Of a DNA stretch of 64,000 bases, positions 5,084 through 60,454 are shown piece after piece. The position numbers and the translations under genes were made by a program. Source of the stretch: Minutocellus sp. GHC0000111 (lineage: Eukaryota). The notes under the pieces were generated by a model. The model saw only the letters and a program-made list of their open reading frames with translations, did no database searches and had not been told where the DNA came from. The stretch spans positions 1,674,001 through 1,738,000 of the forward strand of contig OZ361258.1 of the NCBI GenBank assembly GCA_977018835.1, read 5' to 3'. Positions within the stretch are counted from its first letter, which is position 1, and every line of letters begins with the position of its first letter.

Positions 5084-5538
5084 CTATCTTAGCCGTACAG
5101 TCCGGCTACTGTATGTACTACGTAGCTAGAGTAGGCTTAGCGCTTTGCCGGATGCCGACCGACCGACCGGCATGGGCGGGCATGGACCACCCACATGGAT
5201 GGAGGACCACGGGACGGACCACACAGCGGCCGAAGCGGCGAAGCACCGAAGCACCCATCGGCGAAGTTTGTGTTCTCGCTGGCTGACTGGACACTGGACA
5301 TCCACAGGATTTATTGAGTGTGTCAGACGTTTTCCTTAATTTGGTAACAAACACTGCACAGGATTTATCGAAAGTACTTACAACGTTACCGATCTGACAT
5401 TCGCACATGGAGGAAATCGATTTTTTGGCGTCGAAAATCTGACATTCGCACCTCGATGTCTGGCGAAGAACGGGCATCCGAAAAGGAACTGCTTAATAAA
5501 CAGAACCGCCGCACAGAATCAACCACTCATTCAACGAA

Positions 5539-6158: not shown

Positions 6159-6507
6159 GCTGGCCGCTTTCCAGCTTTCCACGGTCGTCTCTACCTGCTA
6201 TTCACATCATCACATGCTATTATGCACACAAATGCGACGCGCGAAGGCCATCTTGCGCTCATAGGAATTCCTATGTGTGTGCATGTAAAGTCGACCGACG
6301 ACGAGTGCTGTTATGTAAAAATATCTCGCTCCTCTTTTTCTAAATACCAGCAATGTAAAGAGACGACACAAGAAATGCTACATCTACCTCTACTAGCTAG
6401 AGCTAGCTCCTACGTAGCTAGGTACAGCTCAAGAGATTCATCTCGTCTGCGTCGTAGATGACAAAGTCACATGCACCTATTCGCCATCCTCTTTTGTTTG
6501 GCCCACA

Positions 6508-6856: not shown

Positions 6857-7148
6857 TCATGATTTTTGTGTAGCTACATGTAAGTTCCAACTCAAAAATC
6901 TCGAGTCGAATGAGTCGAACGGAAGGTGCCGCTGACGCGGCAATTTTTCCCATGAATCCCGAAAACCGCCTTACTAGCTAGTATGTCAAAACATGCTCGT
7001 TTCATCCATCAGCCCTCGCCGATCTGACATTCCCACATCTCGGAAATTGCAAACATTGCAGTCCGTTCGTCACTTTTTTGTCACTTTTCCACGGTCAGGA
7101 TAAATGTTCTTTGCAATGCTCTTTGCAACACGATGAATAAATTAAATA

Positions 7149-10100: not shown

Positions 10101-10591
10101 TCGCCGACGACGGTGACGGTTTGGCGGGCGAATTTGACCGTGGCCGCTTCTTCGACGTGTTTGCGCTCGGCGATGGTGTTTTCGGCTCAGCTGCCGCCTT
10201 TGCCGCCTTCCTGGATGCCTTGGTGTTGCCTCTCTTGCTCCCTGAGAACGAAGTTCTGCTGCGTTTGTATTTTTTGGGCGTGGTCTGGTTGGTCGTCGTC
10301 ATCGTCACAAAATTTGCGGGTTGCGGTGTGAGGGGGTGTGCGGGGGACCAAAAATATATGTGTTCCTGCCAGAATCTACTGGACCTGCGAATTCAGTGGA
10401 TACTACTGGTCGGTGGCAACCTACTGAATGAGCAGGTCCAGTAGATATCCACGAGTTGAGGAGTATTTGCGTTCCTCCCGAAGAGAATGTCGACTAACAA
10501 AACACGTGGTGGGAAATGAGAAATGGGTGCAAGAATGACCTTTTTTAGGGGTTATTGGTATACCCTCTACAAATCCTCTGAAACCGAAAGG
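7149..10591 (-). mobile_element. Tc1/mariner DNA transposon (DD39D type), copy A
   Basis: 22-bp TIRs: CCTTTCGAGTTCAGAGGATTTG at 7149 and the reverse complement of CCTTTCGGTTTCAGAGGATTTG ending at 10591. TA target duplication at 7147-7148 and 10592-10593. Confidence 0.95.
7504..10308 (-). CDS. DD39D mariner transposase (934-aa ORF with a 2-bp frameshift near the C-terminus)
   Basis: Catalytic YLDEKWFY ... MDNAGGHG ... PRSPETNVLDLGIW, with 39 residues between the 2nd and 3rd Asp. An extra dinucleotide at about 7608-7612 replaces the acidic tail seen in copy B (native stop would be at 7463). Confidence 0.93.
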   Translation of the reverse strand: MTMTTTNQTTPKKYKRSRTSFSGSKRGNTKASRKAAKAAAEPKTPSPSANTSKKRPRSNSPAKPSPSSAKKRTAPPPIPMAFLLAADVIRRAGKDLWWRVTPDSCGKDDICVGSRQKWEDVLPAFIEADLLRSKSVGGGKYELQYNEEKWKDMQQHLKEHCSLKLHLSTCRPRGKTRRRALCVCAHRLRKKKEDNRPKFSGPEGQKVHEKRNPDEVLFSGRSTVLATKLGERLSAHRKEVQSAHCEARVKSLVDEAKKLGWMPASLLSILKGTGDTSATEAAAASPNDEGLGGADTSVVCATSSDIDEQVKVALGLDFVVRMANDDMLRPPRPNATVTEPMPIRKEKQANERMRFSAVALADWWGYGDPTRTYEDRQQIATAACRQVAYDHCYAKSTGGSQLYKWRDQLYKSLTDGISNPIGRKEVRGRKACTDMIEEKKPGHLRELHRHATRMKGAMATFKELADCMSAKSATPDEDRLTISLHRLQLFRWWKKQGGKEKSSIEKPRLTPEHCRKRLDWIEKWEDITTDPNIPVAYLDEKWFYTTTRRRKIKMLPLSDEELSSPNLASIHASEASPKIRSRRHPVKVMCLGVVGRPMKDETKDVDFNGRIMIKRVAREQKVEKLTRNQNFSPDAKVNDALKNDKDWRDIYDENADMTAGHLCDHIAEIYGLSEFVTERLEIQCEDYKSDGQAKSRKHAAVGYNQKISSLKRHTPDSNGEKVKVEIDDLELGVRYQRGDKVTKDCSCDSKWMLETVNEVGKAIRDAHHWVKWDPQNVQESDVACLVMDNAGGHGSNEAVEKYTEDLKNKYKIEIIQQVPRSPETNVLDLGIWMSLQSAVEKEHRGQKNDANALDKTVMKVWANVASKEAFLNVFGKLPVIYNNIKRSRGGNNLVETRRGKAGLSQKLPRKKLKRMVNHSGQLMLPAKMMTLRTT

Positions 10592-10756
10592 TAGGCCTAC
10601 ATTTTGCTGTTCGGCCGCCACGCCCTCGAACTTCACTCCCGACCTTGTACCGTAATTATCCAGCATCACAGTCTGTCATAAAAAATAAACAATCCTCCTT
10701 TGCGACGAATCAACCCAACCCAACCCAACACAACACAACCCAACCAAGAACGAATC

Positions 10757-11260
10757 ATGACCGCATCGTCAACAACATCCTTCGAAGACACCTGTGCCGC
10801 CTCGTCCTCTCCTTCGGAATCATCGTCGTCCGTGGTCGTCCTCGAAGGCACCCTCAATGATATACATGGAGGCCTCTACGACGAAGAACAAGAACAAGAC
10901 GACCAAAGCCCGGAAGTCATCCGCAGGCGTAGGAAGGAACGTCGAGAGAGGCAGCGTCTCCTCCGCCGAAGCCGGGGACAGAGGACCTCTTCTTCTCAGC
11001 ACCAAGCCGAACGGCAGGACCTCGTCGCCACCACTGAAGGCACCGCCGCCCTGGATCTGCTCTTCAACCCTCGCGCTCGCGACCTCCATCCTCTCAAGCT
11101 TGCTCCTGCTATCCTCGCCGCCGTGGAGAACACGACCATCAGCACCAACACCGTTGTCAGTGACAGCAACGTGCTCTCTGACGACGATGCCATGGCCGCC
11201 GCCGAGTCTGCTTCCGACGACGGCGACGACGAAGGTGACGAGTCCTCCTTCTCGACTTAG
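10757..11260 (+). CDS. Small acidic low-complexity protein of unknown function, duplicated at 5624-6158
   Basis: Open frame MTASSTTSFEDT...GDESSFST* with a basic RRRRKERRERQR patch. A degenerate paralog lies 5 kb upstream. Confidence 0.5.
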   Translation: MTASSTTSFEDTCAASSSPSESSSSVVVLEGTLNDIHGGLYDEEQEQDDQSPEVIRRRRKERRERQRLLRRSRGQRTSSSQHQAERQDLVATTEGTAALDLLFNPRARDLHPLKLAPAILAAVENTTISTNTVVSDSNVLSDDDAMAAAESASDDGDDEGDESSFST

Positions 11261-12397
11261 GCCGTCCGCTCTCCACGGTCTCTGTCTGCTCTTCGCACCG
11301 CAGACTATACAATGCAACGCACGAGACCCAGCCAGCTAGCACACATGCACATAGACAGTCGAATGATGCCGGCAAGAGAGTATCTTGCCATGCCATTCTT
11401 TTGAATGAAGAGAGAAGCAACATGTATTGCACATCAGTTACTTTACAAATAAGTAAAAAGAAATTAAATTAGTAAAGCCAATTTTGATTACGATTACGAT
11501 TGCATGACCCACCTCCTCTTGCATCTGCGCAGGATAGTAGAACAACTTCCAACACAAGACGCAGCTTGTGGATCCCTGCAAATAAATACCGTCATTTATT
11601 TACTCGTCCTCTTCCTCCGGGTCATCCACAATGTAAAGTGGACCACCGCTGAAAGTCCAAACATGATGCATTCTTCGGGACGAGGCATCGTCGTCTCCCT
11701 GAAACGGCATCGTATTGCCAACCGAAACATATCTGGGCCAAAAGGATTGTCCCCACTCCATGTTCTCGGTAGAGATGACCTGACGAAAGTCGCATGCCTT
11801 TATGTTGAAGCCCAAATCAACGAGACGTTGGTCCCGAAGACGATTTGTTCCTCCTCGATCTTGTGTCTCTTCGACAAATTGAGGACCTGTCTCCGTATTC
11901 GACGACATCCTGGCTATCTACCTTACTCACCGCCATCCGAGCACGTCACAAAGACAAGACCCATCATCTCCTTTCCCGTGATCCAAACCACACTACATGT
12001 ATTGAACAATACTTCCGCCCCCTCAGTTCACCTCCTCCCCGAGATGGAATCGGATAGGTGACCCCAACCGGACTCAGTGGCCGGTTTTTGCAAACTATTA
12101 TTTCACAACTCACACAATTATTATTTATATATATCAGGCCCGCCAATGGATCGTCGGCAGCTGCTCTTCACAACGTTTCTACACCATTCTGATGTCAAAC
12201 CAAGTTTTCCTGATGCCATTTTGTATGGTGCATTTTTGGCATGACTTCTCTCTAGTGCCCCTCAAAGTGTCCCTGCTTACCCCAATTGTGGGGTCTGTTC
12301 GGTAGGAGATCTATTCTCTGACTCGAGCCTAGCTCGTATGTCGGCTCGCCGATATCCCTCTAACCGAGGCATCGATACATAGACTCCTAAACTGCTA

Positions 12398-15300
12398 CCT
12401 TTCGGTTTCAGAGGATTTGTAGAGGGTATACCAATAACCCCTAAAAAAGGTCATTCTTGCACCCATTTCTCATTTCCCACCACGTGTTTTGTTAGTCGAT
12501 ATTCTCTTCGGGAGGAACGCAAATACTCCTCAACTCGTGGATATCTACTGGACCTGCTCATTCAGTAGGTTGCCACCGACCAGTAGTATCCACTGAATTC
12601 GCAGGTCCAGTAGATTCTGGCAGGAACACATATATTTTTGGTCCCCCGCACACCCTCACACCGCAACCCGCAAATTTTGTGACGATGACGACGACCAACC
12701 AGACCACGCCCAAAAAATACAAACGCAGCAGAACTTCGTTCTCAGGGAGCAAGAGAGGCAACACCAAGGCATCCAGGAAGGCGGCAAAGGCGGCAGCTGA
12801 GCCGAAAACACCATCGCCGAGCGCAAACACGTCGAAGAAGCGGCCACGGTCGGTCAAATTCGCCCGCCAAACCGTCACCGTCGTCGGCGAAGAAGAGGAC
12901 GGCCCCTCCTCCTATCCCCATGGCCTTTCTCCTTGCAGCAGATGTCATTCGAAGGGCTGGTAAGGATCTGTGGTGGAGAGTAACCCCCGATTCCTGCGGC
13001 AAAGATGACATTTGTGTTGGTTCTCGGCAGAAATGGGAAGACGTCCTCCCTGCTTTCATCGAGGCCGACTTGTTGCGTTCCAAGTCCGTCGGTGGAGGAA
13101 AGTATGAGCTACAGTACAACGAGGAAAAATGGAAGGATATGCAGCAACATCTCAAGGAGCATTGTAGTTTGAAGTTGCACTTGTCGACGTGTCGGCCGAG
13201 AGGGAAGACAAGACGCAGGGCGCTTTGTGTTTGTGCTCACAGGTTGCGTAAAAAGAAGGAGGACAACCAAACGAAATTCTCTGGACCGGAGGGACAGAAG
13301 GTGCACGAGAAAAGAAATCCCGATGAAGTTCTGTTCTCTGGGCGCTCGACTGTCTTAGCTACTAAGCTAGGTGAGAGGTTGTCAGCTCACAGAAAGGAGG
13401 TGCAGTCAGCGCATTGCGAAGCAAGAGTAAAATCACTAGTCGACGAGGCCAAGAAACTGGGTTGGATGCCAGCAAGTCTCCTCAGCATACTGAAGGGAAC
13501 TGGTGATACTTCCGCCACTGAAGCAGCTGCAGCCTCCCCCAATGATGAAGGTTTAGGAGGAGCCGATACTTCCGTTGTCTGTGCCACCTCCAGTGACATT
13601 GATGAACAGGAAAAGGTCGCTCTCGGCCTCGACTTTGTTGTTCGGATGGCCAACGATGACATGCTCCGTCCTCCTCGTCCCAATGCAACCGTCACCGAAC
13701 CAATGCCAATCAGAAAAGAAAAGCAGGCGAATGAAAGAATGCGGTTCAGCGCCGTGGCTCTCGCGGATTGGTGGGGACACGGCGACCCAACTCGCACGCA
13801 TGAAGACCGGCAACAAATTGCAACTGCCGCGTGTCGGCAAGTTGCGTACGATCACGGTCATGCCAAGTCAACCGGTGGTTCTCAGCTTTACAAGTGGAGA
13901 GACCAGCTCTACAAAAGCCTTACTGATGGCATCAGCAATCCCATCGGCAGAAAGGAGGTTCGTGGAAGGAAGGCATGCACGGACATGATCGAGGAGAAGG
14001 AGCCAGGATGTCTCCGCGAGCTGTGTCGGCATGCTGCTCGGATGAAGGGTGCGATGGCAACCTTTAAGGAGCTAGCTGACTGTATGAGCGCAAAATCAGC
14101 TACTCCAGATGAAGATAGGCTGACAATTAGTCTCCATCGTCTTCAGCTTTTTCGCTGGTGGAAAAAGCAAGGCGGCAAGGAGAAGTCGTCGATCGAGAAG
14201 CCGAGGCTCACCCCCGAACATTGTAGGAAGCGACTTGATTGGATCGAAAAGTGGGAGGACATTACGACCGATCCCAACATTCCTGTAGCGTATCTTGATG
14301 AAAAGTGGTTTTACACTACTACTCGGCGACGAAAGATCAAGATGTTGCCACTTTCTGACGAAGAACTAAGTAGTCCGAACCTCGCGTTTCCATGCTTCCG
14401 AGGCAAGCCCGAAAATTCGATCCAGAAGACACCCTGTCAAAGTTATGTGTCTTGGAGTTGTTGGCCGACCAATGAAGGATGAAACCAAAGACGTTGATTT
14501 CAATGGGCGCATCATGATCAAGAGAGTCGCCAGGGAGCAGAAGGTGGAAAAGCTTACGCGTAATCAGAATTTCTCTCCAGATGCTAAGGTCAACGATGCG
14601 CTAAAAAATGACAAAGATTGGCGCGACATTTACGACGAGAATGCTGACATGACCGCCGGCCATCTTTGCGACCACATTGCCGAAATCTACGGCCTTTCTG
14701 AGTTTGTTACAGAGCGATTGGAACTTCAATACGAGGACTATAAATCCGACGGTCAGGCAAAAAGTCGCAAGCATGCCGCTGTTGGCTACAATCAAAAGAT
14801 CTCGAGTCTCAAGCGACACACTCCTGATAGCAATGTGGAGAGAAGGTGAAGGTTGAGATCGACGACCTTGAGCTCGGGGTGCGGCATCAACGGGGCGATA
14901 AGGTTACCAAGGACTGTAGCTGCGACTCCAAATGGATGTTGGAGACTATGAATGAGGTCGGGAAGGCGATTCGAGACGCACATCATTGGGTGAAGTGGGA
15001 TCCACAAAATATTCAGGAGTCTGATGTTATGTGTCTTATGATGGACAATGCCGGCGGTCATGGGTCCAATGAAGCAGTTGAGAAGTACACCGAGGACCTC
15101 AAAAACAAATATAAGATTGAGACAATCCAGCAGGTTCCTCGGTCGCCCGAGACAAATGTTCTTGATCTCGGCATCTGGATGTCTTTGCAGTCGGCCGTCG
15201 AAAAGGAGCATCGCGGTCAGAAGAATGATGCGAATGCTCTTGACAAGACTGTGATGAAAGTATGGGCCAATGTCGCATCAAAAGAGGCCTTTCTCAATGT

Positions 15301-15839
15301 ATTTGGAAAACTTCCAGTGATATATAACAACATCAAGAGAAGTCGTGGCGGTAACAATCTTGTGGAGACCAGACGGGGAAAGGCTGGTCTCGCAAAAATT
15401 GCCGAGGAAGAAGCTGAAGAGGATGGTGAACCACTCTGGCCAATTGATGCTCCCGGCGAAGATGATGACATTGAGGACGACATAGATGAAAATGATGAAG
15501 ACGATGGAGTCATTGATTTGCTATAACTTATCATAGCATGTCCATTTCTATTCATTACATTTTGATTTGGTGCTTCCAAAAATGTATTTTTCCCGGGGTG
15601 AGGAATGCAAATGTCGAAAAAAATCATCACATAATGTACATTTATTGGTTCTGGTGCACAATATCTCTCGACTATATGTAGAAGTTGGTGACCATAACTT
15701 GGTTCTTGCCCCGACTTCCATCTTGGCCGTCATTTATTCCTCGGAGTTAGAAAAAGTGAGCTTGGATTTTTGGTCTGGTGTGGTCGTGTTTCTAATACGT
15801 CATCATCACGTCACTTTCAAATCCTCTGAACTCGAAAGG
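12398..15839 (+). mobile_element. Tc1/mariner DNA transposon (DD39D type), copy B, inverted relative to copy A
   Basis: Same TIRs. TA at 12396-12397 and 15840-15841. Nearly identical to the reverse complement of 7149-10591. Confidence 0.95.
12679..15526 (+). pseudogene. Frameshifted DD39D transposase of copy B
   Basis: ORF pieces 12679-12963, 12920-14482, 14445-14849 and 14846-15526 tile the copy A protein. Frameshifts at about 12850, 14386 and 14835. Confidence 0.92.
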
Positions 15840-16114
15840 TACATGTAAAACGTTTTGCAGTGCTTTTTCAAAGCCCGAAAATATTTACAGGAGTCCTTAC
15901 TCTACGCCTTGACATCGACAACCCACGTGAACGAACCACAACGCCTCCAAGCCATTGGCCTGCTGCCGCCGGCCCGCCACATTAGTAAGCAATACGAGGC
16001 CGGCCAATATCACAGCAAGCAAGGGAGCTGTGTGCAGTGGCCCAGTGGAGCTACGTAGCTGTCCGATCGGTCGTACTGCTGCTTCTGCAATCGAACGATT
16101 AATTACCAACGACG

Positions 16115-17830
16115 ATGGATCGCTACACCATCCTGTCCAACCTGGGAAGCGGGACGTTCGGCGAGGTGTACAAGGCACGGCACCGCCGGACCGGCACCGT
16201 CGTGGCCATCAAGCGCCTTCGGCTGCGCTGCCCGTCCTTTGCCGATGCCCTCCAGCTGGCCGAGGTTTCGAGCCTCCGACGGTTGTCTTCGGCAGGCCAA
16301 TCACATCGAAATATCGTCCAAATTTTTGAGATCATCCGAGAATCGTCCGGTGCTCTCCAGCTGGTATTTGAGTACATGGCCGACGGCAATCTGTATGATT
16401 TGATCCGTTGGGCGTCGGCCGAGAGGGAAGCGATGCAGCAGAATGGTGCTGTTGGTAACGGCCCAGATCAGCAGAAGATCCTCACCCACCCGCGCATCCA
16501 GTCCATCATCTCTCAAGTTCTGAGTGGTCTGGCCTTTATGAACTCCCGATCCTACTTTCATCGTGACCTGAAACCGGAGAACATTCTCCTATCAGGTCCC
16601 ACCGCCAAAATTGCCGACCTGGGCCTGGCCAAGACGCACACCGCCAGCAAGTTCACGTCGTACGTTTCGACCAGGTGGTACCGCGGACCCGAGCTGCTGC
16701 TGCGCTCTCCCCAGTACACCAAGACCATCGACAGCTTCGCAGTTGGGTGCATCATCGCCGAGCTGTACAATCTCGCCCCGCTGTTTCCAGGGTCGAACGA
16801 ATTGGACCAGCTGTGGAAGGAGATGAGCGTGATGGGCGCACCGACCGACGACACGTGGCCGGAGGGGGTGCGGTTGGCCGAGCGGTTGGGCGTGTTGATG
16901 CCCACCATCGTCCCGTACGAACGGCGCAGGGAGTTCAAGTTGGAGCAGAGGAGAGTTCAGCAGCAGCTGGCGGTGGAGCAGCGTCAGCGGCAGCTTCAAC
17001 AACAACAGCAGCAGCAGCAAGGGGGAGGAGATGAGGCGGCGGCGAAAGCAGCAGCATCAGCAGCACTGCATTCGAGAATCATGATGGCGAACAATGCCAT
17101 CTTGCAAGTTCCTCTGAACAAAATCATGACAACGGCACCTGTATCGGCTCAGAGGCTGACCGCGGCATTGCTGGTGATGAACCCGGCCAAGAGACTCGAT
17201 GCGGCCGAGGCGCTGCGGCATGAGTACTTTGCTCCTCCCAGAACCACCGCCGCCTCTTACAATCCCTATGGCCGTGGTCATGGTCATCGATCTGCTGCTC
17301 CACCACCTCGTCGGGCAAAGGACGATAGGATTGTTGACAAGACTGGTGGGTTGGCCGTGGGTATGAGCATGATAAAGAAACGAGGACGGACGGTCGGTGG
17401 CAATCAGCCTCTTTCATCATCAGCAGCAGCAGAAGCGGGATCAGAAGGTCATGCCGAAGTTGGAGAAGGTGGCGGTGTTGCCATGCTTTCTAGGGGTCGA
17501 TCGCAGCAGTCGCAGCAAGAGAACTATTATGGGCAATCTCCTACAACTACTGTGGTCACCAGCATGCGGGGCAAGGGGCTTTCTGATCACAACGATGTAG
17601 CCCTGCAGGATTGCCAGGGCGAGCACAGCGGCGATGATATTCTGCAAAACAATCCCCAGAAGAAGCGGCGCCAGCAGCAGCTTAAGGACGTGTCAACGAG
17701 TACCAACAATATTACGCCGATGGAGGCGTCGAACAACTCGATCCATTCGTCCAAGGGTGGTGGATTTCACGAGTGGCTTCTAGCGGGAACGCAAAAGAGG
17801 AAAGAGGAACAGGTTCAAGAAAGAAAATGA
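16115..17830 (+). CDS. MAK/ICK (RCK family) Ser/Thr protein kinase
   Basis: LGSGTFGEV, VAIK, HRDLKPEN, DLG, and activation loop FTSYVSTRWYR (TxY). Poly-Gln insert and disordered tail. Confidence 0.92.
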   Translation: MDRYTILSNLGSGTFGEVYKARHRRTGTVVAIKRLRLRCPSFADALQLAEVSSLRRLSSAGQSHRNIVQIFEIIRESSGALQLVFEYMADGNLYDLIRWASAEREAMQQNGAVGNGPDQQKILTHPRIQSIISQVLSGLAFMNSRSYFHRDLKPENILLSGPTAKIADLGLAKTHTASKFTSYVSTRWYRGPELLLRSPQYTKTIDSFAVGCIIAELYNLAPLFPGSNELDQLWKEMSVMGAPTDDTWPEGVRLAERLGVLMPTIVPYERRREFKLEQRRVQQQLAVEQRQRQLQQQQQQQQGGGDEAAAKAAASAALHSRIMMANNAILQVPLNKIMTTAPVSAQRLTAALLVMNPAKRLDAAEALRHEYFAPPRTTAASYNPYGRGHGHRSAAPPPRRAKDDRIVDKTGGLAVGMSMIKKRGRTVGGNQPLSSSAAAEAGSEGHAEVGEGGGVAMLSRGRSQQSQQENYYGQSPTTTVVTSMRGKGLSDHNDVALQDCQGEHSGDDILQNNPQKKRRQQQLKDVSTSTNNITPMEASNNSIHSSKGGGFHEWLLAGTQKRKEEQVQERK

Positions 17831-17997
17831 TGACTTGCAGGGCATGCGTACTGAGCTCGTTCATGTTGGAAGCAGAGCACAATCAGGGGATAGTGCACAG
17901 CAACAGACTGTCGATAGCATCTTGTTCAGGTACCGGTAAATGTAGATCTAGAGTAGATAAAGTCTATCCTCAAAGCTGATGGTTTGATATGTTAGAT

Positions 17998-20900
17998 CTA
18001 CAAGCTATACTTGTCGTCTGAGCTGTCAATATCAGATCGACATACCTTCTCTCTTGGGATTTTGACTTGAGCCTTCTCTGTCGCTGAATTGGCGTCGCTT
18101 TTATCCTCTCGATTTTCTGCATTTTCTACGGCACTTGATTCTTGATGAGGAGCACCAATCTCTTGCTCCTCATTACTATTGCCAGCTCTAGCATCATCGC
18201 CATCTTCATCCTCCTCCTCCTCCTCCTCCTCCTCCCATGCAAATTTTGTATCGGTGTATCCAGGATATTCTTTGCTTTGGAAAAGCTGCTGTAATGGGCG
18301 AAGGAGGAAGACCACCTGAGGCACACTGAACCCGTTCCCGATCAAGTGCCATCCGTAGTGGTAATCTTTCAGGCACACTTTTGTTCTCTGATTGATCTCT
18401 TGCAAAGCAAATGCAATCCTCCTTGGGTCATTGACTTCAAAGGAATCATCAATGGTGTGCGTAAACCCGCCTGGACCAAGACCGACAAAGCTCCAATACA
18501 TGGGTGGAAGTACATCGCGCCATTCTCTCGCTTCGAACGCTTCAAGCCCAACTGTGGATGCTACCCGCAAGTTGGCAAATAAATCCTCAATGGGCTGCTC
18601 GACATACCCTACCGGCAAGCCCATCAATCTCTCCCGGTCATTGGTGTCAAAGAGTTGCCTATCGCCAACGTGAGAGGCAGGTCGATCCTCACCGGGATCG
18701 ATCGCTGGGGCATCGTCTTTTATTCTATACTTGAATAGTGTCTTGTCCATGGTTCTGCCTTTACTAGCCAATAAAGTCATCACCTTTGCATCTATGCCCT
18801 TCTGAAGCATTGTCGGCATCATCCACCCATCATTGAAGCGGGTGGATCCTCCGGCTGGGTGCTCGTCGGCTGGAAACGAATCCGGCTGCCAATTGAAATA
18901 AAACACTCGATCCCTGTGACAAGGACCGAAGTTTGCAGCATCGCACCGATATTCGCTCACCTTGTAGTCCGCTGTGGCGTCTTGCGAACCCGGGACGTTT
19001 TCAACGAGAAAGAACAATTCATCGAAGGAATGAAATGCTTTATTGTATTTTTGTACCAAAGATATCAGCGTAGGAAAATCGCGCATGTATCTGCCGTGCA
19101 TACCTTCTGCGCCCATGCGACGCGCATTCACTTTAGAATGGTCTTGACAGGGCGGCCCTCCGATAACTATGTCGATAGGTCCTTGTTCTCGTACAATGCT
19201 TTGGATGTTGGCCTCTAGCTCTTCGTACGTTTCATACAAGGAATAGACGTATTCAACACCGTCATCCTGCGCAATTCCCAAGCCATAGGCTGGATCATGA
19301 TTGTACCGATGCACAGCCAAGGCAGCTCGATCATGCTCCACAACAATGTTTCTTTTGACAGCGATTCCTAGCTTTTTGAGCGCCACTGCTGCACCTCCGA
19401 TGCCTGCAAAAACTTCCAGAACAATCGCCTCGCGCTTGAGATTAGGATTTTCTCTTCTCGCTCTGCACAGCTGCTGGAATCTCTTATGCACAGCGACAGC
19501 TGTCTCGTCCGTCCATCTTCGGCTCTCTGGCGCTGCCAGAGCCAAATCGTTGTCACTTCGTGACTCTCGTGCTATCGCCGACCTTTTCCTGCTATCGAGA
19601 ACATTGGTCAAATGTCGTTGCATCTTTTTGTCCTCCTCAAGCCTCTTGCTGACAGCTTCAGGCTTCAAAGTTGCCGAAGTAGAAGCACAGCGTTCGAGAA
19701 TAGCTTTATCCGTGCAGTCGTCGTCGGAGGCACCGCCACCAGCGGGCGTTGTTTGTTTTATGAATCGTTCTTGTACACGCCCAAGAGACGAAAGAAAGCT
19801 TTCCAGCTTGTCGTTATTGTCAAGACCATGGCAGCAACCGCGGTGGTATTTCGAGACATTTTGACACTTGGCTAGCTTGGATGAATGTCCCCCGCACCGG
19901 CACAGGTAACAGCAGACGTCAATCTCTCCACACGACGAGGGCTCATCACTCGAAGTCTCAAAGATATTGTCCCTCTCCAGAGCATTTCTAAATGCAGTTA
20001 CATCCTTCACCAGACCTTCCTTCTCCCAGGCCGGCAGAGAAGTATTATTGTTCAAATATGCGAGAGCGGCCGATGGCGCAATGAATTCGTCTAGTCGAAT
20101 CCACGATGAACTCAAGGGAGATGTGCTTGGTACAATCGCTGCACTTTCGATTTCCATTGCAGCTGCCGCTGAGGACGAAGAGGTGGAATCGGAATCGCTA
20201 TCTGCAATAGGACCAGCACCAGCTGCTGCAGCGGCGACGGCTGCCACGTCGACCTTTCTTCTCCACTCAACCAGAAATTTAAGAATGGGCCTGCTCTCTT
20301 CACCGCCTGACTGCACTATTCGGTGATCGACTACACGGGCCTCGAAGGTCCGTCCTCCCTCAACGTATTCACAATTCTCTCCAGCTTCGGCGGCGGCTAA
20401 TTCGGCAGCATACTTCGCATCAGTTGATGTACAATTCGCGTTCGAGGCAGCTGCGCTGCTGACTTTCTCTTCGCCGGATATCCTATTTCGCTTTCGAGCA
20501 GGCGGCTTTGTATCATCTTCTGAATCATAAACGTAATCTTCATCATTGTCTTGATCACTCTTATCACTCTCATAATCAGCATCTTCATCACCATCGTCTG
20601 CCTCGTATCCAGGCGCGAAATCTCCTTGTATAACAATGTTACTAATTGCGGCCTCGGCCAAGTGCTCCTTGTCACCATCATCATACTTGACGTGGTAATA
20701 GTTGACGCCGGAAATGCCGGTATGCAGTTCGCTGGCGTGCACCAACTCGTCGATGGTGCCGTTGAAGTATTCCCCCTCGCTGACAAAGTACTTGCTGACT
20801 CTTTGTCCGAGCCGATATCTGTGCCTGGGTTTCCTTGCAGCTTTCTTCTTTTCTGCCTTCTTGTTGTCGGTGCTAGGTTTCGCATCCCCCTGGGGAACAA

Positions 20901-21465
20901 CTGTCGCGGCCGATGGCTTTTCATTGTTATTGGCGGGAGTGTTGGTGTCACCCTTTTGCTGCACATTGACATTGGCATGTCCGTCCCCACCACCGATGAC
21001 ATCGTCAACATGCCGCGAATAGAACGCCCGGAGCAACGACCCAAGCAGGTCCGATTCGTCCACCTCGCCCTTACCGAGATCATCTTTGCCATTATCGCCC
21101 AGCGTCCAGTCGTCCCACCTTCGTACCTGCGCCTCTGTCATGGTCTCTTCGTCTGTGTCCTCCGGATAGTAAATCGTGTACAACAATTCGTCCTCTTGGT
21201 TGCGACCAGTGTCCTCCTCCCCAGCAGGTTCGGACGTTCCAACTACATATCCGATAAAGTAACGCTTGTAGTTCGGAAAGTACTTCTTTATGCGCCTTCC
21301 GATGTCATAATTGGGTGATGCCGACATGTTTGGTGGTGGTTCGGTTGGGTTGGATGGCAGCAAATAATAAATCATCACATGATCATGGTGGTGCCGGTGT
21401 CGGGTGGCGGGCCCGCCACCTGACCTGCGGACTGGCGACTTGATGATGCAAAACAGAAAGCGCAA
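17998..21465 (-). CDS. DNMT3: C5-cytosine DNA methyltransferase, DNMT3-like, with two Tudor-like and one chromo-like N-terminal domains (likely start 21327)
   Basis: Motif I EVFAGIGG, IV GGPPCQDHSKVN, VI FLVENV, VIII HRDRVFYFNW, IX RERLMGLP and X LIGNGFSV. Tudor-like IGRRIKKYF and LGQRVSKYF...YHVKYDDGDKE. Chromo-like RVVDHR...KFLVEW...SSW. Confidence 0.85.
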   Translation of the reverse strand: MRFLFCIIKSPVRRSGGGPATRHRHHHDHVMIYYLLPSNPTEPPPNMSASPNYDIGRRIKKYFPNYKRYFIGYVVGTSEPAGEEDTGRNQEDELLYTIYYPEDTDEETMTEAQVRRWDDWTLGDNGKDDLGKGEVDESDLLGSLLRAFYSRHVDDVIGGGDGHANVNVQQKGDTNTPANNNEKPSAATVVPQGDAKPSTDNKKAEKKKAARKPRHRYRLGQRVSKYFVSEGEYFNGTIDELVHASELHTGISGVNYYHVKYDDGDKEHLAEAAISNIVIQGDFAPGYEADDGDEDADYESDKSDQDNDEDYVYDSEDDTKPPARKRNRISGEEKVSSAAASNANCTSTDAKYAAELAAAEAGENCEYVEGGRTFEARVVDHRIVQSGGEESRPILKFLVEWRRKVDVAAVAAAAAGAGPIADSDSDSTSSSSAAAAMEIESAAIVPSTSPLSSSWIRLDEFIAPSAALAYLNNNTSLPAWEKEGLVKDVTAFRNALERDNIFETSSDEPSSCGEIDVCCYLCRCGGHSSKLAKCQNVSKYHRGCCHGLDNNDKLESFLSSLGRVQERFIKQTTPAGGGASDDDCTDKAILERCASTSATLKPEAVSKRLEEDKKMQRHLTNVLDSRKRSAIARESRSDNDLALAAPESRRWTDETAVAVHKRFQQLCRARRENPNLKREAIVLEVFAGIGGAAVALKKLGIAVKRNIVVEHDRAALAVHRYNHDPAYGLGIAQDDGVEYVYSLYETYEELEANIQSIVREQGPIDIVIGGPPCQDHSKVNARRMGAEGMHGRYMRDFPTLISLVQKYNKAFHSFDELFFLVENVPGSQDATADYKVSEYRCDAANFGPCHRDRVFYFNWQPDSFPADEHPAGGSTRFNDGWMMPTMLQKGIDAKVMTLLASKGRTMDKTLFKYRIKDDAPAIDPGEDRPASHVGDRQLFDTNDRERLMGLPVGYVEQPIEDLFANLRVASTVGLEAFEAREWRDVLPPMYWSFVGLGPGGFTHTIDDSFEVNDPRRIAFALQEINQRTKVCLKDYHYGWHLIGNGFSVPQVVFLLRPLQQLFQSKEYPGYTDTKFAWEEEEEEEEDEDGDDARAGNSNEEQEIGAPHQESSAVENAENREDKSDANSATEKAQVKIPREKVCRSDIDSSDDKYSL

Positions 21466-21575
21466 CTGGCCGAACTCCGATCAGAAGAGCTTGAACAGCC
21501 GAACATGGCATGACATGACACAAATCGAAGCGTACTGTGTAGCGTTGTTCCTCCTTACGGTGCAGTGTATGAAAC

Positions 21576-25419: not shown

Positions 25420-26341
25420 GGTTGGTGTGGGAGCAGGGGATTTTATGATTTGAACTGATTCACTTCTCTGTGCGATGATAAAGGTATGCTCTCACGTCTG
25501 CGTTGTGCGATCGCATTTAACGCAGACGGCGTTAATTGAAGTCGTATTTGGTTCTTTAGCGTGGCACAGATGTTGCGAGAGGAAATATCTCGGGGGCGAA
25601 AATTACTAGTACATGTATTATTGAAAGTGTCTCGACATTTTTATGATTTTGTGTGTGCCCGCCAAACATACTACGTAGTATCTTATCTCTGCTGCATTGC
25701 GCGATGGCGGCGATGCTGCCGTTTTGCATCAGCAACAGCGCAACAGCATGTTCCCACTCTTTGACTCTGCGGGCCGGTGTTGTGCGAAGAAGAAGACAGG
25801 CCCTTTCAGGCATCCCCCTTAAGTAACGTTCCCGGGTTGAAGGGTCGACGAGGGACAGAAAGTCACTCTCATGTATTTCTTCACTTTGACATGAAATCAT
25901 CCGGCCGACACGCGCCATTCTATCGGCCCAGGACGACGTTCGTCGCCGGCCCTCGAGCATTTATTTTCCCAGCCCCCGCTCAGACAACGCTCAGAGGCCG
26001 GCACCTCGGTTGCGATCATCCGACCTGGTGCTAACGACTTTGCCTACATGTACTCTTTGCATCCATCTGTCCTACCTAGCTACCGCGCGGAAGCAATACC
26101 AACACCAAGTCAGGAAAGAGGCTGATTCGTACCAGACATCCCACACACCGTAGCACAAATTGTGCAAGGAAGCGGGTCACCTTTCTCGCATACGCATAGC
26201 CCGGCCGGATATACATACTGCGCTGGCCAAGTAGCCCGGTTTGTTCAAGCTCTTCGTCCGGGCCCTCTTCCTTTACGGCGGGCCGACACATTGAAATACA
26301 ACTGAAATAGAGAGAGAAAGACAGAGAGAAAGAAGGAGAAG

Positions 26342-34627: not shown

Positions 34628-35032
34628 GGCCGGCCAGAAGCCATAAACTGACGGTTCAGCAGAGGCCGGAAAAATGGACTTCGAGGACATTCTCTCCATT
34701 GGGAAAATCACTGCACCGATGGAACCGACTCAAATGCGCTCAAAATATATACCGGAAGCAGGCCGGCCGGAAGCCATAAACTGACGGTTCAGCAGAGGCC
34801 GGAAAAATGGACTTCGAGGACATTCTCTCCATTGGGAAATCACTGCACCGATGGAACCGACTCAAATGCGCTCAAAATATATACCGGAAGCAGGCCGGCC
34901 GGAAGCCATAAACTGACGGTTCAGCAGAGGCCGGAAAAATGGACTTCGAGGACATTCTCTCCATTGGGAAAATCACTGTACCGATGGAACCGACTCAAAT
35001 GCGCTCAAAATATATACCTAGGTACCGGAAGC
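34628..35032. repeat. Tandem repeat, three copies of about 133 bp
   Basis: Near-identical units start at 34628, 34761 and 34893 (GGCCGGCC.GAAGCCATAAACTGACGG...TATATACCGGAAGCA). Confidence 0.95.
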
Positions 35033-43674: not shown

Positions 43675-44177
43675 ATTAGATTCTGATGATACCTTCCACA
43701 GCTATTCTATTGAAGAGGAGATGAGTGCTGCAAGATGAAAGATATAATCGTTTCGAAATGCCTTGGTCGCCGGTCGCTTTGCGCTCCCAGCGCTCACCGC
43801 CCGCCGATTCCTGCGACGAAGAGATTGCTCTGCGCAATAGCAGCCTGAGTCCCGTTCAAGTCCAAAACCGAGGTAGTTCGCTTTTGCTTTTTTGCATCGA
43901 AGCACTTCTCCACCCTGAGACTGACCTCTTCCTTCTTCGGTGCGCCAAGGCAGCTCTGTTCAAATTGCGATGGTGGGAATTCCTCCGGGTTTCTTCCCTC
44001 CGCATCCGTATCCGATGCAGCAGCGCAACCCGGAGGGTATCGAGAGATCCATGGTCATTACCGGTAACCGCGGGGTAGAGTTTATTCCTACCGGTAGATC
44101 TACCTGACCTAGACGATGATCTGTTACAGGTAAGGTAAACAGTTAATGTTATGATATTACTCTGAAGCAAACAAACA

Positions 44178-54026: not shown

Positions 54027-55368
54027 AGGGAAAAATAAATTTTTATTTATTGGAAAATTGTTATTAGGGCAATGCCAATTGCAGCAACAGGGCCATGCTG
54101 GAGAGAGCAACATGCATTGCAACGTCCTGGAAGCTTGCAATATTTATTGCAATATACGGAATGGCTGCAAATTTTATTGCAATATTTTGGGTGTAGTGCC
54201 GTCCATAAAATAATTGCTTGTCTCGCCTACATGTAGTGGGTCCATGCATCTGCGCTACATGTTGCAAGTGAGTTGGTCCCATTTTAGGTGAGCCACTCAG
54301 TAACATTCGGATTTTCACTAACTTCGCTCGCGTTGTCGGACGACGGAAAGACTGCCACTCATCCATTTTTTCTCCCGAACGAAGCTCATCATGGTGACCC
54401 CCGCTCCTGGCTGCTACACATTTGCAAGGTAAGATATGGGCATTCCCGAGGCTGGCCGATAACATTGCGCTACGTATGCGAAAGTTTCAGCTTGATTGGC
54501 ATGCTATTGTATGAGAAAATATAATTCAAAACAATCAACCTGTGTTCGAGTACGCGAAAAAGGGCCGCGGATGAGACATGATACCAAGAGAGCCACAGTC
54601 GCCCAATCCACCCAGAATTGCAGAGATACGCGCCCAAGATATGTATGAAAATGATTATGTGGTTGATTGTTGTGTATTTTGTTTGTATCCGCCCCCGAAT
54701 CGGCCGCCAATGAGAGAAAAAATTTCGTCCGGCGTCGTCGTTTTTCTCGCGAAACTTTGCCCCCACCAAACACATGTTGTGCTTGGAATTTTTGAGCTGC
54801 GCCTTCGATGCCACATTTCTACAGGGTGTCTAGATGTGTGGCATTTGCTCAGAATTCTCGATTCTCCCATTCATTCCAGAGATTCTTGGGGGCAAAGGTC
54901 GGCCGGACGGCGAATTTCGCGGTCGACGGAAAGGCGAATTGTTACTTTTCGCGGGTCGAGTGGCTCACCTAAAGCTGGACCAACTCAAGTCGCCAGCGCA
55001 CAGTGTGTGTAGGAGAGGAAAATCCTTGTGTCGATGTACTTACTGGCGGCCTCCTTTTCAACCTCCTCATCCTTTTTGAGTGCAGCAAAGACATTGTACT
55101 CGCCATCGTCGGCCATCTCCTCGTCATCGTCACCGTCAACAACATCCAACGGCAAATGCTAAAAAGACCTACACGTGCTCGACTGTCTCATGATGACATC
55201 AGAGAAATGCCTAGAATTTTGGCAATAGATGCTGCAATGTTGCCCGTCCAACCAATTGACATTGCAATACCTGGAGCCAGAGCAATAGGTATTGCAATAT
55301 CCCAAGTGCTTCCAATAATTGTTATTGCAATATATTGCAATATATTGCAATACAATATATTGTTCCCT
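54027..55368. mobile_element. Putative non-autonomous TIR element with subterminal ATTGCAAT repeats
   Basis: Imperfect termini AGGGAAAAATAAATT and AATATATTGTTCCCT, with ATTGCAAT-type clusters at both ends. No TSD found. Confidence 0.5.
54270..54986. mobile_element. 717-bp MITE with GAG...CTC termini and a 4-bp TSD (Sola-like)
   Basis: TIR GAGTTGGTCCcatTTTAGGTGAGCCACTC versus the reverse complement of 54958-54986. AAGT duplicated at 54266-54269 and 54987-54990. Confidence 0.8.
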
Positions 55369-55496
55369 TCCTTTGATCCCGCGGCTTCGAAGAAAGTAGG
55401 TAGGCGTCAAACTCCCGCTGGCTTGACTGTGCCGTCATGTTTTCCTCGTGTCCGCCTTCGTCGCCGGCGTCGTCTCCAAAGCATCAACACGAGGGC

Positions 55497-56111
55497 ATGC
55501 AAAGAGCATCCGCAGTAGCCTCGAATACAAGCAGTAGCAATCCCGCAGCGTCGCCCATGGTTATTGATGAGCCGCCAAAGTCAACACGTGCTGCACCAGC
55601 ACCTGCACCAGAACCAGCACCGGCAGTGACCGATCGGCAATACTTTGCCTACTGCCTCGAATCGGCCGCCCTCCTGCACAATCTGGGGACGCTCCATCAC
55701 GACCGTGGCACCGAGGGTTCCGACGATGCCATGAAGGCGTATTCGCAGAGCATCCAGATGCGCATCAAGGCCCAGAACGTGTCCGAGGCTTCGGCCAAGC
55801 GATCTCAGCTATTGTCTCTGCAACAGCAGCAGCAACTTACTAGTTTATTACCAGCCACAACCAACGACGACAACGACCGACCGACACTTGATGAGATGGC
55901 CGATCACCTCGCCGACCTTCGAAAGCGTTCGTCCGACCTGCGCCGCGCGGGGGCCCAGCGCCGCGCCGATGCCGGGAGCGCCTACATCTATCCGCACGAT
56001 GCACCCGCCACTCTTCGACGGCGGGACACGGCCATGGTGGGGTTGAACGCCTTCACTCGTCCCCTCCTCCTGCCCGTCTCGGAGGGATACGATCCGCGTT
56101 TGCCGGGATAG
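55497..56111 (+). pseudogene. Truncated TPR-repeat protein fragment
   Basis: AALLHNLGTLHHDRG...DAMKAYSQSIQMR is a TPR signature. The ORF ends abruptly between transposable elements. Confidence 0.5.
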
Positions 56112-56518
56112 GAATTCTTCTCGTCGATGTCGTACCCGTTCGGTGTTGGTTGTTCTGCTGGCAGTGCTGGTAACACTACTACCCAACAACAACCTCCAAG
56201 GCGAAGAGGGGGTCTCAAGCGTTCGACGCCGTCGTCCCATCTCATCAATCCAGCGGGCATGCCCGGTTACAACAGCAGAGCGGCCACCGCTCTTCCCACC
56301 CATACTCAGTAGCAGCCATGCAGCAGATTCTAACTCTCAGTCAGTCCGATGCTCTGGTGGCCATCGAGGAGGTGCTCCGAAAGGTCGGCGATGGCCATGC
56401 CGCCGCGGCTGCCTAGAGCTAGCTTGAAGTAGGGACGCAAGGAGGCATCTACCATTATGGTGGCCAAAATCAGAGCCAAACGGATGAATCCACACTGCTA
56501 CTTTCATGTATATGGGCC

Positions 56519-58661
56519 CGGGTGCCCTCTGCAATGCTCCTGATATATTCCAAGAGAAAATTAATGATTTATTCTATGGTTTCGAGCATATCCAAGCATA
56601 TCTGGATGATGTGCTTCTTACTACAAAAGATACATGGGATAATCACCTCGAGGAACTCGAGCGTGTGCTTCTCAGAATTGCCGAGGCTGGCCTGAAAGTA
56701 AATGCAGACAAATCATTCTTTGGCCGCTTCGAATGCGAATACCTTGGATACTGGGTGACGCGCGATGGCATCCGTCCCCTCGCAAAGAAAGTTGAAGCAG
56801 TTGCTAATCTTGCTCCGCCAAAATCCGTCAAGCAAGTCCGTCGATTCGTCGGCCTTGTCAATTACTACCGCGACATGTGGCCTCGACGAGCACATATTCT
56901 CGCGCCTCTCACAAAACTGACGTCCAAGAAAAATACATTCGTATGGACGACCGTCGAACAAGAAGCGTTCGACGAGATGAAGCGTATCATCGGACGTGAC
57001 GCGCTCCTCGCTTATCCTGACTTCGATGACGAGTTCATCATTCACACCGACGCAAGCAAAACCCAACTCGGGGCCGTTATTTCTCAGAAGGGAAGGCCTA
57101 TCGCATTCTATTCCCGCAAATTGTCTGACGCGCAGACGCGCTACCTAGGTACACGACAACGGAACGAGAACTTTTGAGTATCGTAGAAACTCTCAAGGAA
57201 TTCAGAAACATCCTTCTTGGCCAGAAAGTCAAGATTTATACGGACCACAAAAATCTGACATACAAACAGTTCAATACAGACCGCGTGATGCGCTGGCGTC
57301 TGCTCATTGAAGAATATGGTCCCGAAATTATTTATGTCAAAGGCCTTGATAACGTAGCAGCTGACGCTCTTTCCCGGCTCAGCCTATCTGGCCTTCCGAC
57401 CGAAAATGACCCTGAAACCTTCGACGAATCGTTTGTTTCGAACGTCGAATTGGCGGAAAGATACGACGTCGCGTTGGATCGCGCTGACGTTGGCTCAATG
57501 CCTTTATCGTACAAAATGTTGCGTAAATACCAAAATCGGGACGCAAGCGTATCTGACCAAATTAGCGCTAAGAAACTACATACGCAGTCCTTTCGTGGGG
57601 CCGGAGGCAAGCAAATTGACCTCGCCTGCACATCCCAGGGGAAGATCTATGTACCGAAACCCCTGCGTAAGCACGTGATTGAATGGTACCACACGTATCT
57701 TATGCATCCTGGAGCGACCAGGACGGAGGAAACAATAAAGCAACACCTCTATTGGCCAGGCCTACAAGATGAAGTGAAGGCCGCAGTAACAAAATGCGCG
57801 ACTTGTCAGAAAAGCAAGAAGCAAATTCGCAAGTTTGGCCATCTGCCAGAGAAAGTAGCAGAAGCAGAACCATGGGAAAAATTATGTGTCGATCTTATCG
57901 GACAATATACTATCCGCCGCAAGGGAAAACATAAGCCTGACTTACAGCTGAAAGCCGTAACAATGATCGATCCAGCAACCGGATGGTTTGAGATCGCTAC
58001 TTACGATGATAAAAGGTCGATGACCGTAGCCAATATTGTCGAGTATACATGGCTATCAAGATATCCACGTCCATCGGAAGTTACCGTCGATCGTGGCAAA
58101 GAATTTATTGGCAGTGCGTTCAAGGATGAACTCTGCGAAAAAGAACATGATATTGAGGTGAAATTTGCTACTACGGCAAATCCACAAGCAAACTCAATTG
58201 TAGAGCGAATACATCAGACCTTGGCGTCGATGGTTCGTTCCAAGGACCTCGAAACATCAGAAGATGTCGAATTCGATTGGCAAGGCGTTCTTGCCGCCGC
58301 TGCGTATGGAATTCGCAGTACATATCATACAACGCTGAAAGCAAGTCCGGGACAGCTAGTATTTGGACGTGATATGAAATTTAATGTTCGTCACGTAGCT
58401 GACTGGCGACTTATACGAGAGCAGAAGCAAAAGATAATAAAAAAGAATAATGAACGTGAGAACGATAGGAGAATTCCTCATCGCTATCGCCGAGGCGACA
58501 AGATATTGTTGCTCAACAAGCAAGCCAACAAGTACGAGCGTCCTTACCTCGGACCGTACAAAGTCCTCGAGTTTCTCCCTGAAAGCGGGAATGTCAGGAT
58601 TCAGAAAGGGCCAATTTCCGAACGCGTCAACATCAGACGAGTGACGCCGTTCCGGGAATAG
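56519..58661 (+). mobile_element. pol: Ty3/Gypsy pol, 5'-truncated (RT - RNase H - integrase), frameshifted by an 8-bp insertion at about 57144
   Basis: RT YLDD. RNase H IHTDAS and YTDHKNL. Integrase HHCC, CVDL, TVDRGKEF and VERIH. Domain order RT-RH-IN. Confidence 0.95.
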
Positions 58662-58708
58662 TAAGGAGGCCTACAGGAAAACAAGGCAACATCGAGCGTG
58701 GGGCCGAA

Positions 58709-58906
58709 TGCAACATGTGATCGTCTGAATGACGATAATATTACGTCATATGGATACGCTCGCTGTTCCCGTCGAGCACACATCATGTGTCGTGCCAAGA
58801 TCTGGCAACGTGTCTCCCAACGTAGATGCCGATCGCATCAAGTTGGAGATCAATCTTATCAAATCTAGTTTAGTCTCTCTGCTCTAGTCACAATCTATTT
58901 CCAACA
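58709..58906 (+). mobile_element. Probable 3' LTR of the Gypsy element
   Basis: Purine-rich GTGGGGCCGAA immediately before TG at 58709, and a candidate ...AACA end at 58906. No 5' LTR is available for comparison. Confidence 0.45.
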
Positions 58907-60454
58907 ATTTTGTGCAACTGCTTTGTTCTACCTTTTCGTGTCTCTGTACCTCGTGCATGGTGCACAGTTGTAAACATGTGCGTTTGTTCTTGCTTAAGAT
59001 TTAAATAAGGTGTAGCTTAATTTTGTAGCACACACTGGCAAAATGTATTGGATGTTCACCCTGGCAGGCTTTCTCCCTTATTTCCCCCCTTTTTAGTTTC
59101 TGAATGACGTCATTATCTGACATGTAAAAATGCTGGATTCCCCTCAATTTTAAATCCTGTTTGGTTTTCGTGCCTTTGTGGATCTCCATTCTTTCATGCT
59201 TAGCATGACTTCTAAGTCACTAGTGCTCATTCGAAAGGTCTTCGCCCATCTGATCAGATCCTCTTTTTGCTTTTTTCCCCAGCTTGGTTTGATTGTATTT
59301 TTGTCTAGTCTTTCAATCCATTTTTCTCTCAGTTGCACTTTCTTGCACAGTGTTGCTCCGTCTCGTTGGCATTTGAGGCCTAGGACTCTGTGGTGATGAA
59401 GCCAAGTGAGAGGTCGCGCACCGGCGACAATGAGACGCCAACCAGAGGCGACGGAAGAACTCCTTGCCGAGAGGAGAGCCAATGAACGCATCCATGGAAA
59501 TTCGCGGTGATTCTTGGAGACGAGAGTGAGACAAGGGAGAGTGCGAAAGGCCATGGAAGAGAAAAAGGTTGTCAAAAGAGTGCTGCTGGGGGGGGGGGAG
59601 ATGACTCCAGAAAGCAGACTGCCTTGGCGCACCGAGACAGGACGAAGGCGCACCTGCAGATAGTTCCGATTACAGCTACAACACAACTGCTAGAAACTTG
59701 AGAACAGTTGACATCAAACAGAAACGGGATGGGTGCACACGAGAAGAGGGGGGAGAAGTGAACAACAATGAATGGTGCGATGACACTGCACGCAGACACG
59801 CCGCATGAAAAAAGGAAGGAATGGTTGTAGCACGAAGTGCCAATTTACAAATAATAGAAAAAGACGCACCCACTAGGGCACCCGGGCCATCTGCTGCGGC
59901 CTCCCTCCTCTCCCACCCCGACACGAACACCGCCTCGAATGAGAAGCCACGCTGCTGTTGATGCCGTGGGATGCGTACGTACGTATACATACGTACGGTA
60001 CGTACGGTGATCAGACCACTGACTCAGTGCCCTCTCCTGACCCTTGATCCATTTGCCAACGACATCTCCGATGGCCCATTTTTCATCTACGTAGGTCCTG
60101 TTCACCTCTACTAGCTATATCTATCTAGCTTAGCTTTAGGACCTCTTAGCAGACCTACGTGACACATCTTTTCCACCCGTGCTCGCCCCCCATTTCGGTT
60201 CGCACCTCACCGGCTTGTGTGTCTTGGGCTCTCTCACTCGTCACGCAAGAAAAACCGACACATCTTCAATCGGCCAAAACGACCGTTTCTTTCGACAATG
60301 TTGGAACGACGATCCAATCCCTTCCCCGAAAGTCCTGACCAGATCGACCCATGTCCAATCGACCACACTTCTCTGGATCGAACCTTCTGTCGATCATCAC
60401 ACGTCTCGCAGCAACGCCGCCGTGCTGCCTGTCTTCGCTGACTGAAACACCAGC

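Follow-up and report, generated by a model that had tools for sequence, protein, structure and literature searches.

Excision footprints in the Tc1/mariner superfamily belong to textbook knowledge. In Sleeping Beauty (SB) and mariner elements nicking starts three bases within the element and its tip is cut second, leaving 3-nt 3′ overhangs on the flanks and, by end joining, footprints (PMC7827188). The footprints of SB, Mos1, ZB and Passer (IS630-Tc1-mariner and pogo) resemble the diatom scars described here in having a duplicated TA around terminal bases, with a 3-nt offset for SB and mariner (PMC7827188). However, the SB filler is one overhang, whereas the diatom filler is both overhangs whole and its 6 nt exceed the 0–3 nt found in ZB (PMC7913693) and the 0–4 nt found in Passer (PMC9976928). 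The C. elegans Tc1 footprint taCATGta, as cited in PMC3520976, shares with the diatom scars its symmetric, palindromic form and the retention of both ends, and the Tc1 overhangs are likewise non-complementary (PMC4490562), but this footprint is of 2+2 form and is called rare (PMC3520976), compared with 3+3 in the diatom. Among plant elements, Ppmar2 and Osmar5 leave 1–4 nt (PMC9632168) and Stowaway footprints consist of mixed pieces of both ends, of up to six bases and up to TACTCC...AGTA (PMC1925063). The diatom scars, which repeat a symmetric 3+3 form exactly, represent a variant of this both-ends kind of footprint. No description of mariner footprints in diatoms, or of TACCTAGGTA as a footprint, was found in the literature consulted, the figures and supplements of which may already show 3+3 forms; TACCTAGGTA occurs once in one preprint on Starships.

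The sequence analysed, hereafter the window, is a 64,000-nucleotide stretch of contig OZ361258.1 of Minutocellus sp. GHC0000111. Its tocopherol cyclase has its named relatives in diatoms (Odontella, 55%; Attheya, 54%; Chaetoceros, Mayamaea and Seminavis), and the host is taken to be a diatom. Two copies of a TA-flanked DNA transposon of 3.45 kb reside in it:

7147–10593, minus strand: resident DNA transposon copy 1, both TA included, with 24-nt imperfect terminal inverted repeats (TIRs) starting CCTTTCG
7504–10392, minus strand: uninterrupted transposase frame (P0001), 962 amino acids from stop to stop, first Met at 31
12396–15841, plus strand: resident transposon copy 2, frame broken, longest open stretch 597 amino acids

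The copies are 99% alike, with 28 mismatches and six small indels, copy 2 being frameshifted, and the ends of both read TA-CCTTTCG...CGAAAGG-TA. P0001 carries the motifs YLDEKW, MDNAGGHG and NVLDLGIW at a spacing of D-248-D-39-D. It gave no transposase match of its own in the Pfam or NCBIfam profiles, and a PDB sequence search matched no transposase among solved structures; the top Atlas matches of the transposase were DDE_3 at 0.90–0.93. P0001 and 62 relatives were compared as a set of 63 proteins, of which 54 could be scored for the spacing between the second and third aspartates: all three conserved aspartate motifs are present in these 54, with DD39D in 42 and DD38D in 12. HTH_Tnp_Tc3_2 was found in 11 of 27 aligned members and the IS630 transposase model in 15 of the 27. 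The resident transposon has the TIRs, the TA duplication and the DDD/E transposase of Tc1/IS630 kind that characterize an IS630-Tc1-mariner element. Transposases of its clade are long, up to ∼850–1000 amino acids, the first two aspartates lying 205–248 amino acids apart and the long N-terminal part belonging to no known family; those of Tc1/mariner elements have 282–345 amino acids (PMC2874221), so that the resident transposase is far longer. Sister families with 60–93% identical transposases exist, and no prokaryotic plasmid relative of the transposase was found.

Comparison of positions 11900–16400 with contigs of public runs (numbered here X1, X7, X9 and X11) showed an empty allele with a single TA at the copy 2 site in X1, confirming the TA duplication of the resident transposon. 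Inside the transposon, single contigs of X1 reach a depth of 17,953–21,148, compared with 181–210 on the flanks, while X11 holds one contig of 3,551 nt at a depth of 52.9, compared with 69.6 on the flanks. Depth is a rough guide only, but these values suggest that the transposon multiplied about 100-fold, recently and in one lineage. A protein cluster (P0006) at 97% identity has 275 member sequences, and contigs from an RNA library run along the transposon, possibly through DNA carry-over. In both copies a 24-nt hairpin immediately precedes the transposase frame on its upstream side (10374–10446 and 12543–12615), with a similar one at the same place in a 61% relative (L001:3091–3175). Two diverged copies (77–92%) of a short reading frame, at 5743–6142 and 10878–11232, lie ∼5.1 kb apart and flank copy 1, and a frame of 1,160 codons (17998–21480), in which a C-5 cytosine methylase domain is encoded, lies ∼2 kb from copy 2.

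The best 80 of 114 metagenome loci with relatives were examined for transposon ends. In seven a TA-bounded inverted repeat encloses the transposase match, giving complete but distant relatives of 1.2–5.6 kb, whose best segments are 36–45% identical; two of the seven (L023 and L027) share one repeat. All seven start TACCTTT, which makes the end CCT a character of the clade, and no CCTA-ended relative is among them. No description of this CCTTTC-ended clade was found in the literature consulted, footprint tables in figures and supplements aside.

As a general rule, the ends of plant DD39D elements start with CTCC. The resident transposon shares with such elements (PlantMar/Guest: Osmar5 and Ppmar2) the DD39D spacing, short TIRs, the TA target and footprint pieces from both ends, and its 3.45 kb fits the 2–6 kb given for the likewise short-TIR PlantMar/Guest elements (PMC7325037). 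The hosts of the latter, however, are flowering plants and a few oomycetes (PMC7325037), whereas the resident host is taken to be a diatom, and the ends of elements with Stowaway footprints start CTCC (PMC1925063), whereas the resident ends start CCTTTC. The resident clade is also set apart from PlantMar by its transposase of ∼930 amino acids, the 205–248 amino acids between the first two aspartates and the DD38D spacing of 12 of 54 members. In addition, plant footprints are heterogeneous, compared with the identical 3+3 form found twice in the diatom window. By this comparison, the resident transposon appears to work like a plant DD39D mariner, but it differs in the host and end features of PlantMar and is not filed as such.

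One of the two scars lies in a retrotransposon fragment:

56528–58661, plus strand: 5′-truncated Ty3/Gypsy pol fragment (RT end, RNase H and integrase) carrying scar 1, recognized by Pfam, by 1221 relatives (best 71%) and by loose ends of contigs
57142–57151, no strand: scar 1, TA-CCT-AGG-TA, +8 nt, shifting the Gypsy pol frame, recognized by direct reading, run contigs and the spacing in pol relatives
58709–59030, plus strand: probable 3′ LTR belonging to the Gypsy fragment, with an approximate end and beginning with TG at 58709 after a purine-rich tract

Read directly in the window, positions 57139–57155 are CGC TACCTAGGTA CACG. The stop-to-stop frames 56488–57177 (RT end and first part of RNase H) and 57129–58661 (rest of RNase H, and integrase) overlap at scar 1, and the Pfam RT_RNaseH profile is divided between them (profile positions 1–48 and 45–105). 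Among the best 120 of the 1221 pol relatives, the spacer between the YSRKL and ERELL motifs is 30 nt (10 residues) in 118, the motif pattern being unmatched in the other two, and TRYTTT closes it in 88. The window has 38 nt, an excess of 8 nt; of the frame-restoring sizes tried (2, 5, 8 and 11 nt) only 8 nt reaches the relatives' spacing, which rules out the other three.

Positions 55200–59400 were compared with the contigs of four of the 24 public runs listed, X1, X7, X9 and X11. The site at 57142 is empty in all three runs that cover it, X7 giving no cover there: the 8 letters are missing from one contig of X1 (depth 1021.7 of 1021.7), three of X9 (245.1 of 283.2) and one of X11 (121.7 of 121.7). 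X1 is possibly the source of the window itself and then not independent; X9 and X11 come from other studies, of more diverged strains. The +8 allele at 57142 was absent from the contigs of X1, X9 and X11 among 12 of 45 indels, contigs being assemblies that drop minor alleles, and no transposon end was seen at 57142 among 24 of 145 loose ends in the contigs of the four runs. The junction that marks the window haplotype (56248–56542) is present in X1 with 0 differences at a depth of 93, compared with ∼1,020 for the Gypsy family, a ratio at which the +8 allele would account for about one copy in eleven, and its loss from contigs is expected. The 8 nt at 57142 are a derived insertion at a single TA. 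This agrees with the preliminary description, which had read TA-CCTAGG-TA at 57142–57151 as a break in the Gypsy pol frame mended by removing 8 bp, and which would have given way had other Gypsy copies shared them. Its placing of the Gypsy part from 56506 is corrected to 56528, where homology begins (loose ends in X1, X7 and X9).

Several other origins of the 8 nt were considered and rejected. An ancestral Gypsy feature is ruled out by the run contigs and by the spacing in 118 of 120 relatives, and a programmed frameshift or a real split gene by the continuity of the pol relatives across the motif. Slippage duplication is ruled out since the 8 nt repeat their neighbours no further than TAC; the direct repeat flanking both scars can be read as TAC or TA. 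A hAT-type hairpin scar is ruled out because both flanks are intact and the palindrome ends at TA, and hairpins are not used by Tc1/mariner elements (PMC7827188).

The Gypsy copy itself has the domain order RT, RNase H and integrase in Pfam matches. Paired LTRs, gag and protease are absent from it; it begins at 56528 inside RT, and the contig loose ends there show that the whole 5′ part is missing. In X7, other flanks precede 58708/58709, and depth in the run contigs is raised over 58725–59006. In X1 (depth 131) and in the RNA run X7, contigs connect 56277 with 59307 across 418 other letters, so that the window haplotype carries a 3,029-nt patch (56278–59306) replacing 418 nt of a stretch present in the RNA library; the patch is made up of other sequence (∼250 nt), the Gypsy fragment beginning at 56528, its LTR and a further ∼280 nt. 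Since scar 1 falls on an RT-truncated fragment in one haplotype only, its effect is nil. One X7 contig has TACA before the integrase-region TA at 58484, giving TA-CA-TA, possibly a one-sided scar in another Gypsy copy.

The second scar lies in a tandem array that provides its own control:

34628–35018, plus strand: 132-bp tandem array of 2.9 units with 98% matches, units 1 and 2 serving as a built-in empty-site control
35015–35024, no strand: scar 2, the same TA-CCT-AGG-TA, +8 nt, in the array's last unit, recognized by alignment of three units

Units 1 and 2 are identical at 131 of 132 positions and have a plain TA at the scar 2 site; in the three-unit alignment, unit 3 is exactly 8 letters longer than either at 35015. 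As the extra letters are in unit 3 alone, scar 2 is younger than a very young duplication, and the 8 nt at 35015 are a derived insertion at a single TA.

TACCTAGGTA occurs twice in the window, compared with 0.004–0.010 expected per window under Markov orders 1–4 and with any match in 0 of 100 shuffles. The enrichment of the footprint word that had been predicted thus exists within the window (2 against ∼0.01 expected), with a derived second site at 35015. TA-bounded palindromes as a whole are in excess, so that the Markov null is overly generous to any single word; the empty-site controls at both scars are independent of that null. Among all shapes composed of TA, the first a and last b bases of the transposon (a and b from 0 to 5) and TA, only 3+3 and 2+2 are far above expectation in the window, and no 2+3, 3+2, 3+4, 4+3 or 4+4 end word is present there. 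The 2+2 word TACCGGTA, also spelled by the resident ends, occurs five times against 0.3–0.4 expected, so that the resident family may leave more than one type of scar or another CC-ended family may be present.

In the 80 loci of the relatives, TACCTTTC or GAAAGGTA occurs in 32, compared with ∼4 expected for each, and 2+3 forms number 6 against 1.5 expected, three of the six being in L079. One further TACCTAGGTA lies 216 nt beyond the clade end in L079 (1 in 182,726 nt, 0.07 expected). The region L079:887–1119, from another host, is rich in scars, with GAAAGGTA at 887 followed by three TACCAGGTA-type words, TACCGGTA and TACCTAGGTA.

Both 8-nt insertions are probably the excision scar of a Tc1/mariner-type transposon with TA-CCTTTC ends, nicked at a 3-nt offset and leaving unpairable 3′ overhangs that were joined tip to tip. 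The filler, CCT and AGG, equals the terminal three bases at both ends of both window copies, exactly as the preliminary description had it for the resident mariner-type transposon. Its attribution to that very family stands at the level of the clade, for which TA-CCT in both copies and in the seven complete relatives speaks, and not of the family, since sister families with such closely related transposases exist; within the clade, the abundant resident family is most plausibly the source.

Filling in a 3′ overhang before blunt ligation is not possible, and family-X or theta polymerases act in such end joins. Overhangs of 2–6 nt from CCTTTC form no pairs in any overlap, whereas CAG forms two. 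In the proposed sequence of events, the transposon would insert at TA, duplicating it, and on excision each 5′ end would be nicked first, at 3 nt within the transposon, and the 3′ tip cut second, leaving TA-CCT-3′ on both flanks. Since CCT against CCT offers no base pair in any register, the SB-type overlap repair that yields a 3-nt filler would be closed. End joining would then hold the tips together, with each overhang serving a repair polymerase as the template for its partner, producing TA-CCT-AGG-TA, a perfect palindrome with a frameshift of +8. Because the CCT overhangs cannot pair and all bases are kept, the tips would have to be aligned end to end and each 3′ end lengthened along the opposite overhang. 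The nick offset of 3 nt and this route of repair are inferred from the two scars. The 'fill-in and blunt joining' suggested earlier does not hold, as Tc1/mariner cuts leave 3′ overhangs (PMC7827188) and the two overhangs have to serve as templates for one another across the break.

It is rather unlikely that the same transposon made the scars by another route, either with a 4-nt stagger of plant type trimmed by one base per side or through interrupted copying of the tips from the sister chromatid during gap repair, 3+3 being one of several outcomes. Plant DD39D elements do leave 1–4 nt per end (PMC9632168, PMC1925063), the resident spacing is DD39D, and words of 2+2 form in the window and of 2+3 form at the relatives' loci are also in excess. 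Repair from a homologous template is a recognized route (PMC2874221), and germ-line repair of Tc1 is heterogeneous and dependent on polymerase theta (PMC4490562). Trimming or interrupted copying should, however, scatter the filler lengths, whereas both verified events are the same symmetric 3+3 and the window holds no 4+4, 4+3 or 3+2 word.

We regard as improbable that the word has a source other than a CCTTTC-ended transposon: an unseen family starting CCTA, with 4-nt overhangs annealing by their terminal TA, two stacked one-sided CC/GG scars, or a general building of palindromes at TA. TACCTAGGTA can be parsed as TA-CC-TA-GG-TA, a TAC direct repeat also fits both scar sites, the enrichment extends to TA-bounded palindromes of every length, and a TA is shared in 11 of 101 neighbouring palindrome pairs. 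However, the complete relatives start CCTTT in seven of seven cases and CCTA in none, the sole long TA-bounded element detected there in the window begins with CCTTTC, and a two-step route would have to recur exactly at two unrelated sites. An assembly or sequencing artefact, to which the absence of the +8 allele from every contig compared at 57142 might point, is very improbable given that the haplotype junction recurs in X1 without differences, that a one-in-eleven variant would drop from contigs and that the same 8 letters appear twice in unrelated contexts and match the ends of the resident transposon.

Tip-to-tip joining of excision ends, the preferred reading of both scars, can be set beside the palindromes of the whole window. 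For words of the form TA-x-rc(x)-TA with x of 1, 2, 3 and 4 nt, 52, 31, 11 and 7 were observed in the window and 17.1, 4.0, 1.1 and 0.3 expected, whereas the other 15 outer dinucleotides are near expectation (up to ∼2-fold for x of 1–3, with small counts for x of 4). Outside long frames (31,591 nt) the counts are 44, 24, 10 and 7 against shuffle means of 11.8, 2.8, 0.8 and 0.2, with nested words falling in more than one class and six of 10 being one local cluster of TATTGCAATA; the enrichment outside genes is about fivefold. Odd fillers of overlap type are not enriched there (16 against 12.9 and 5 against 3.2). Counted by sequence, the window contains TACGTA 20 times, TAGCTA 16, TACATGTA nine, TACCGGTA five, TAGATCTA four and TACTACGTAGTA, TACTAGCTAGTA and TACCAATTGGTA two each. 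Such palindromes occur throughout the non-coding DNA, for example at 739–764, 5119–5128, 6411–6420, 25604–25617 and 44089–44102. As judged from word counts, the host-wide pattern fits tip-to-tip joining, even palindromes being enriched outside genes and odd overlap-type fillers not. A 30-nt inverted repeat enclosing 659 nt (54269–54987) is possibly a small non-autonomous transposon; TATTGCAATA clusters flank it on both sides (54107–55352).

Beside TACCTAGGTA, the empty-site comparison covers one of these words:

15840–15847, no strand: TA-CA-TG-TA (TACATGTA) adjoining copy 2, +6 nt relative to the empty allele

The joint from 12395 to 15846 in X1 skips 3450 nt, which equals the transposon with one TA (3444) and 6 nt, and loose ends of X9 and X11 behind 12393 continue into the sequence found after the second TA. 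The word at 15840–15847 is likely an older scar of another, CA-ended family, into which copy 2 inserted. Copy 1 adjoins the TA-bounded palindrome TAGGCCTA at 10592–10599, by sequence match only. That both copies adjoin TA-bounded palindromes (TACATGTA and TAGGCCTA) suggests that scars serve again as landing sites. In Phytophthora, TACATGTA is known as a promoter motif, for which a footprint origin was rejected by its authors (PMC3520976), so that protein binding is a live alternative for the words outside the empty-site comparison.

A wider reading is put forward tentatively and with some doubt. The diatom may keep both 3′ overhangs whole in general, each cut-and-paste family writing its nick offset as TA-x-rc(x)-TA, and the 8-nt word may mark an undescribed DD38/39D clade whose ends are all-pyrimidine and which only lately expanded ∼100-fold in one lineage. 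The scars, at up to about two per kb outside genes, would then be a leading mutational force, also building promoter-like palindromes such as TACATGTA.

The phenomenon itself is a textbook one, and the Gypsy copy that was hit is a fragment, a single event without evident consequence. The scars nevertheless document, cleanly and with two controls, that cut-and-paste activity has occurred recently and naturally in a diatom. The transposase of copy 1, apparently intact from its reading frame, makes that copy a candidate native tagging tool for diatoms, an 8-nt scar always shifting the frame. TACCTAGGTA is a searchable word with which to count and date the excisions of one clade, and the scars open a direct way to study the joining of unpairable ends in diatoms.
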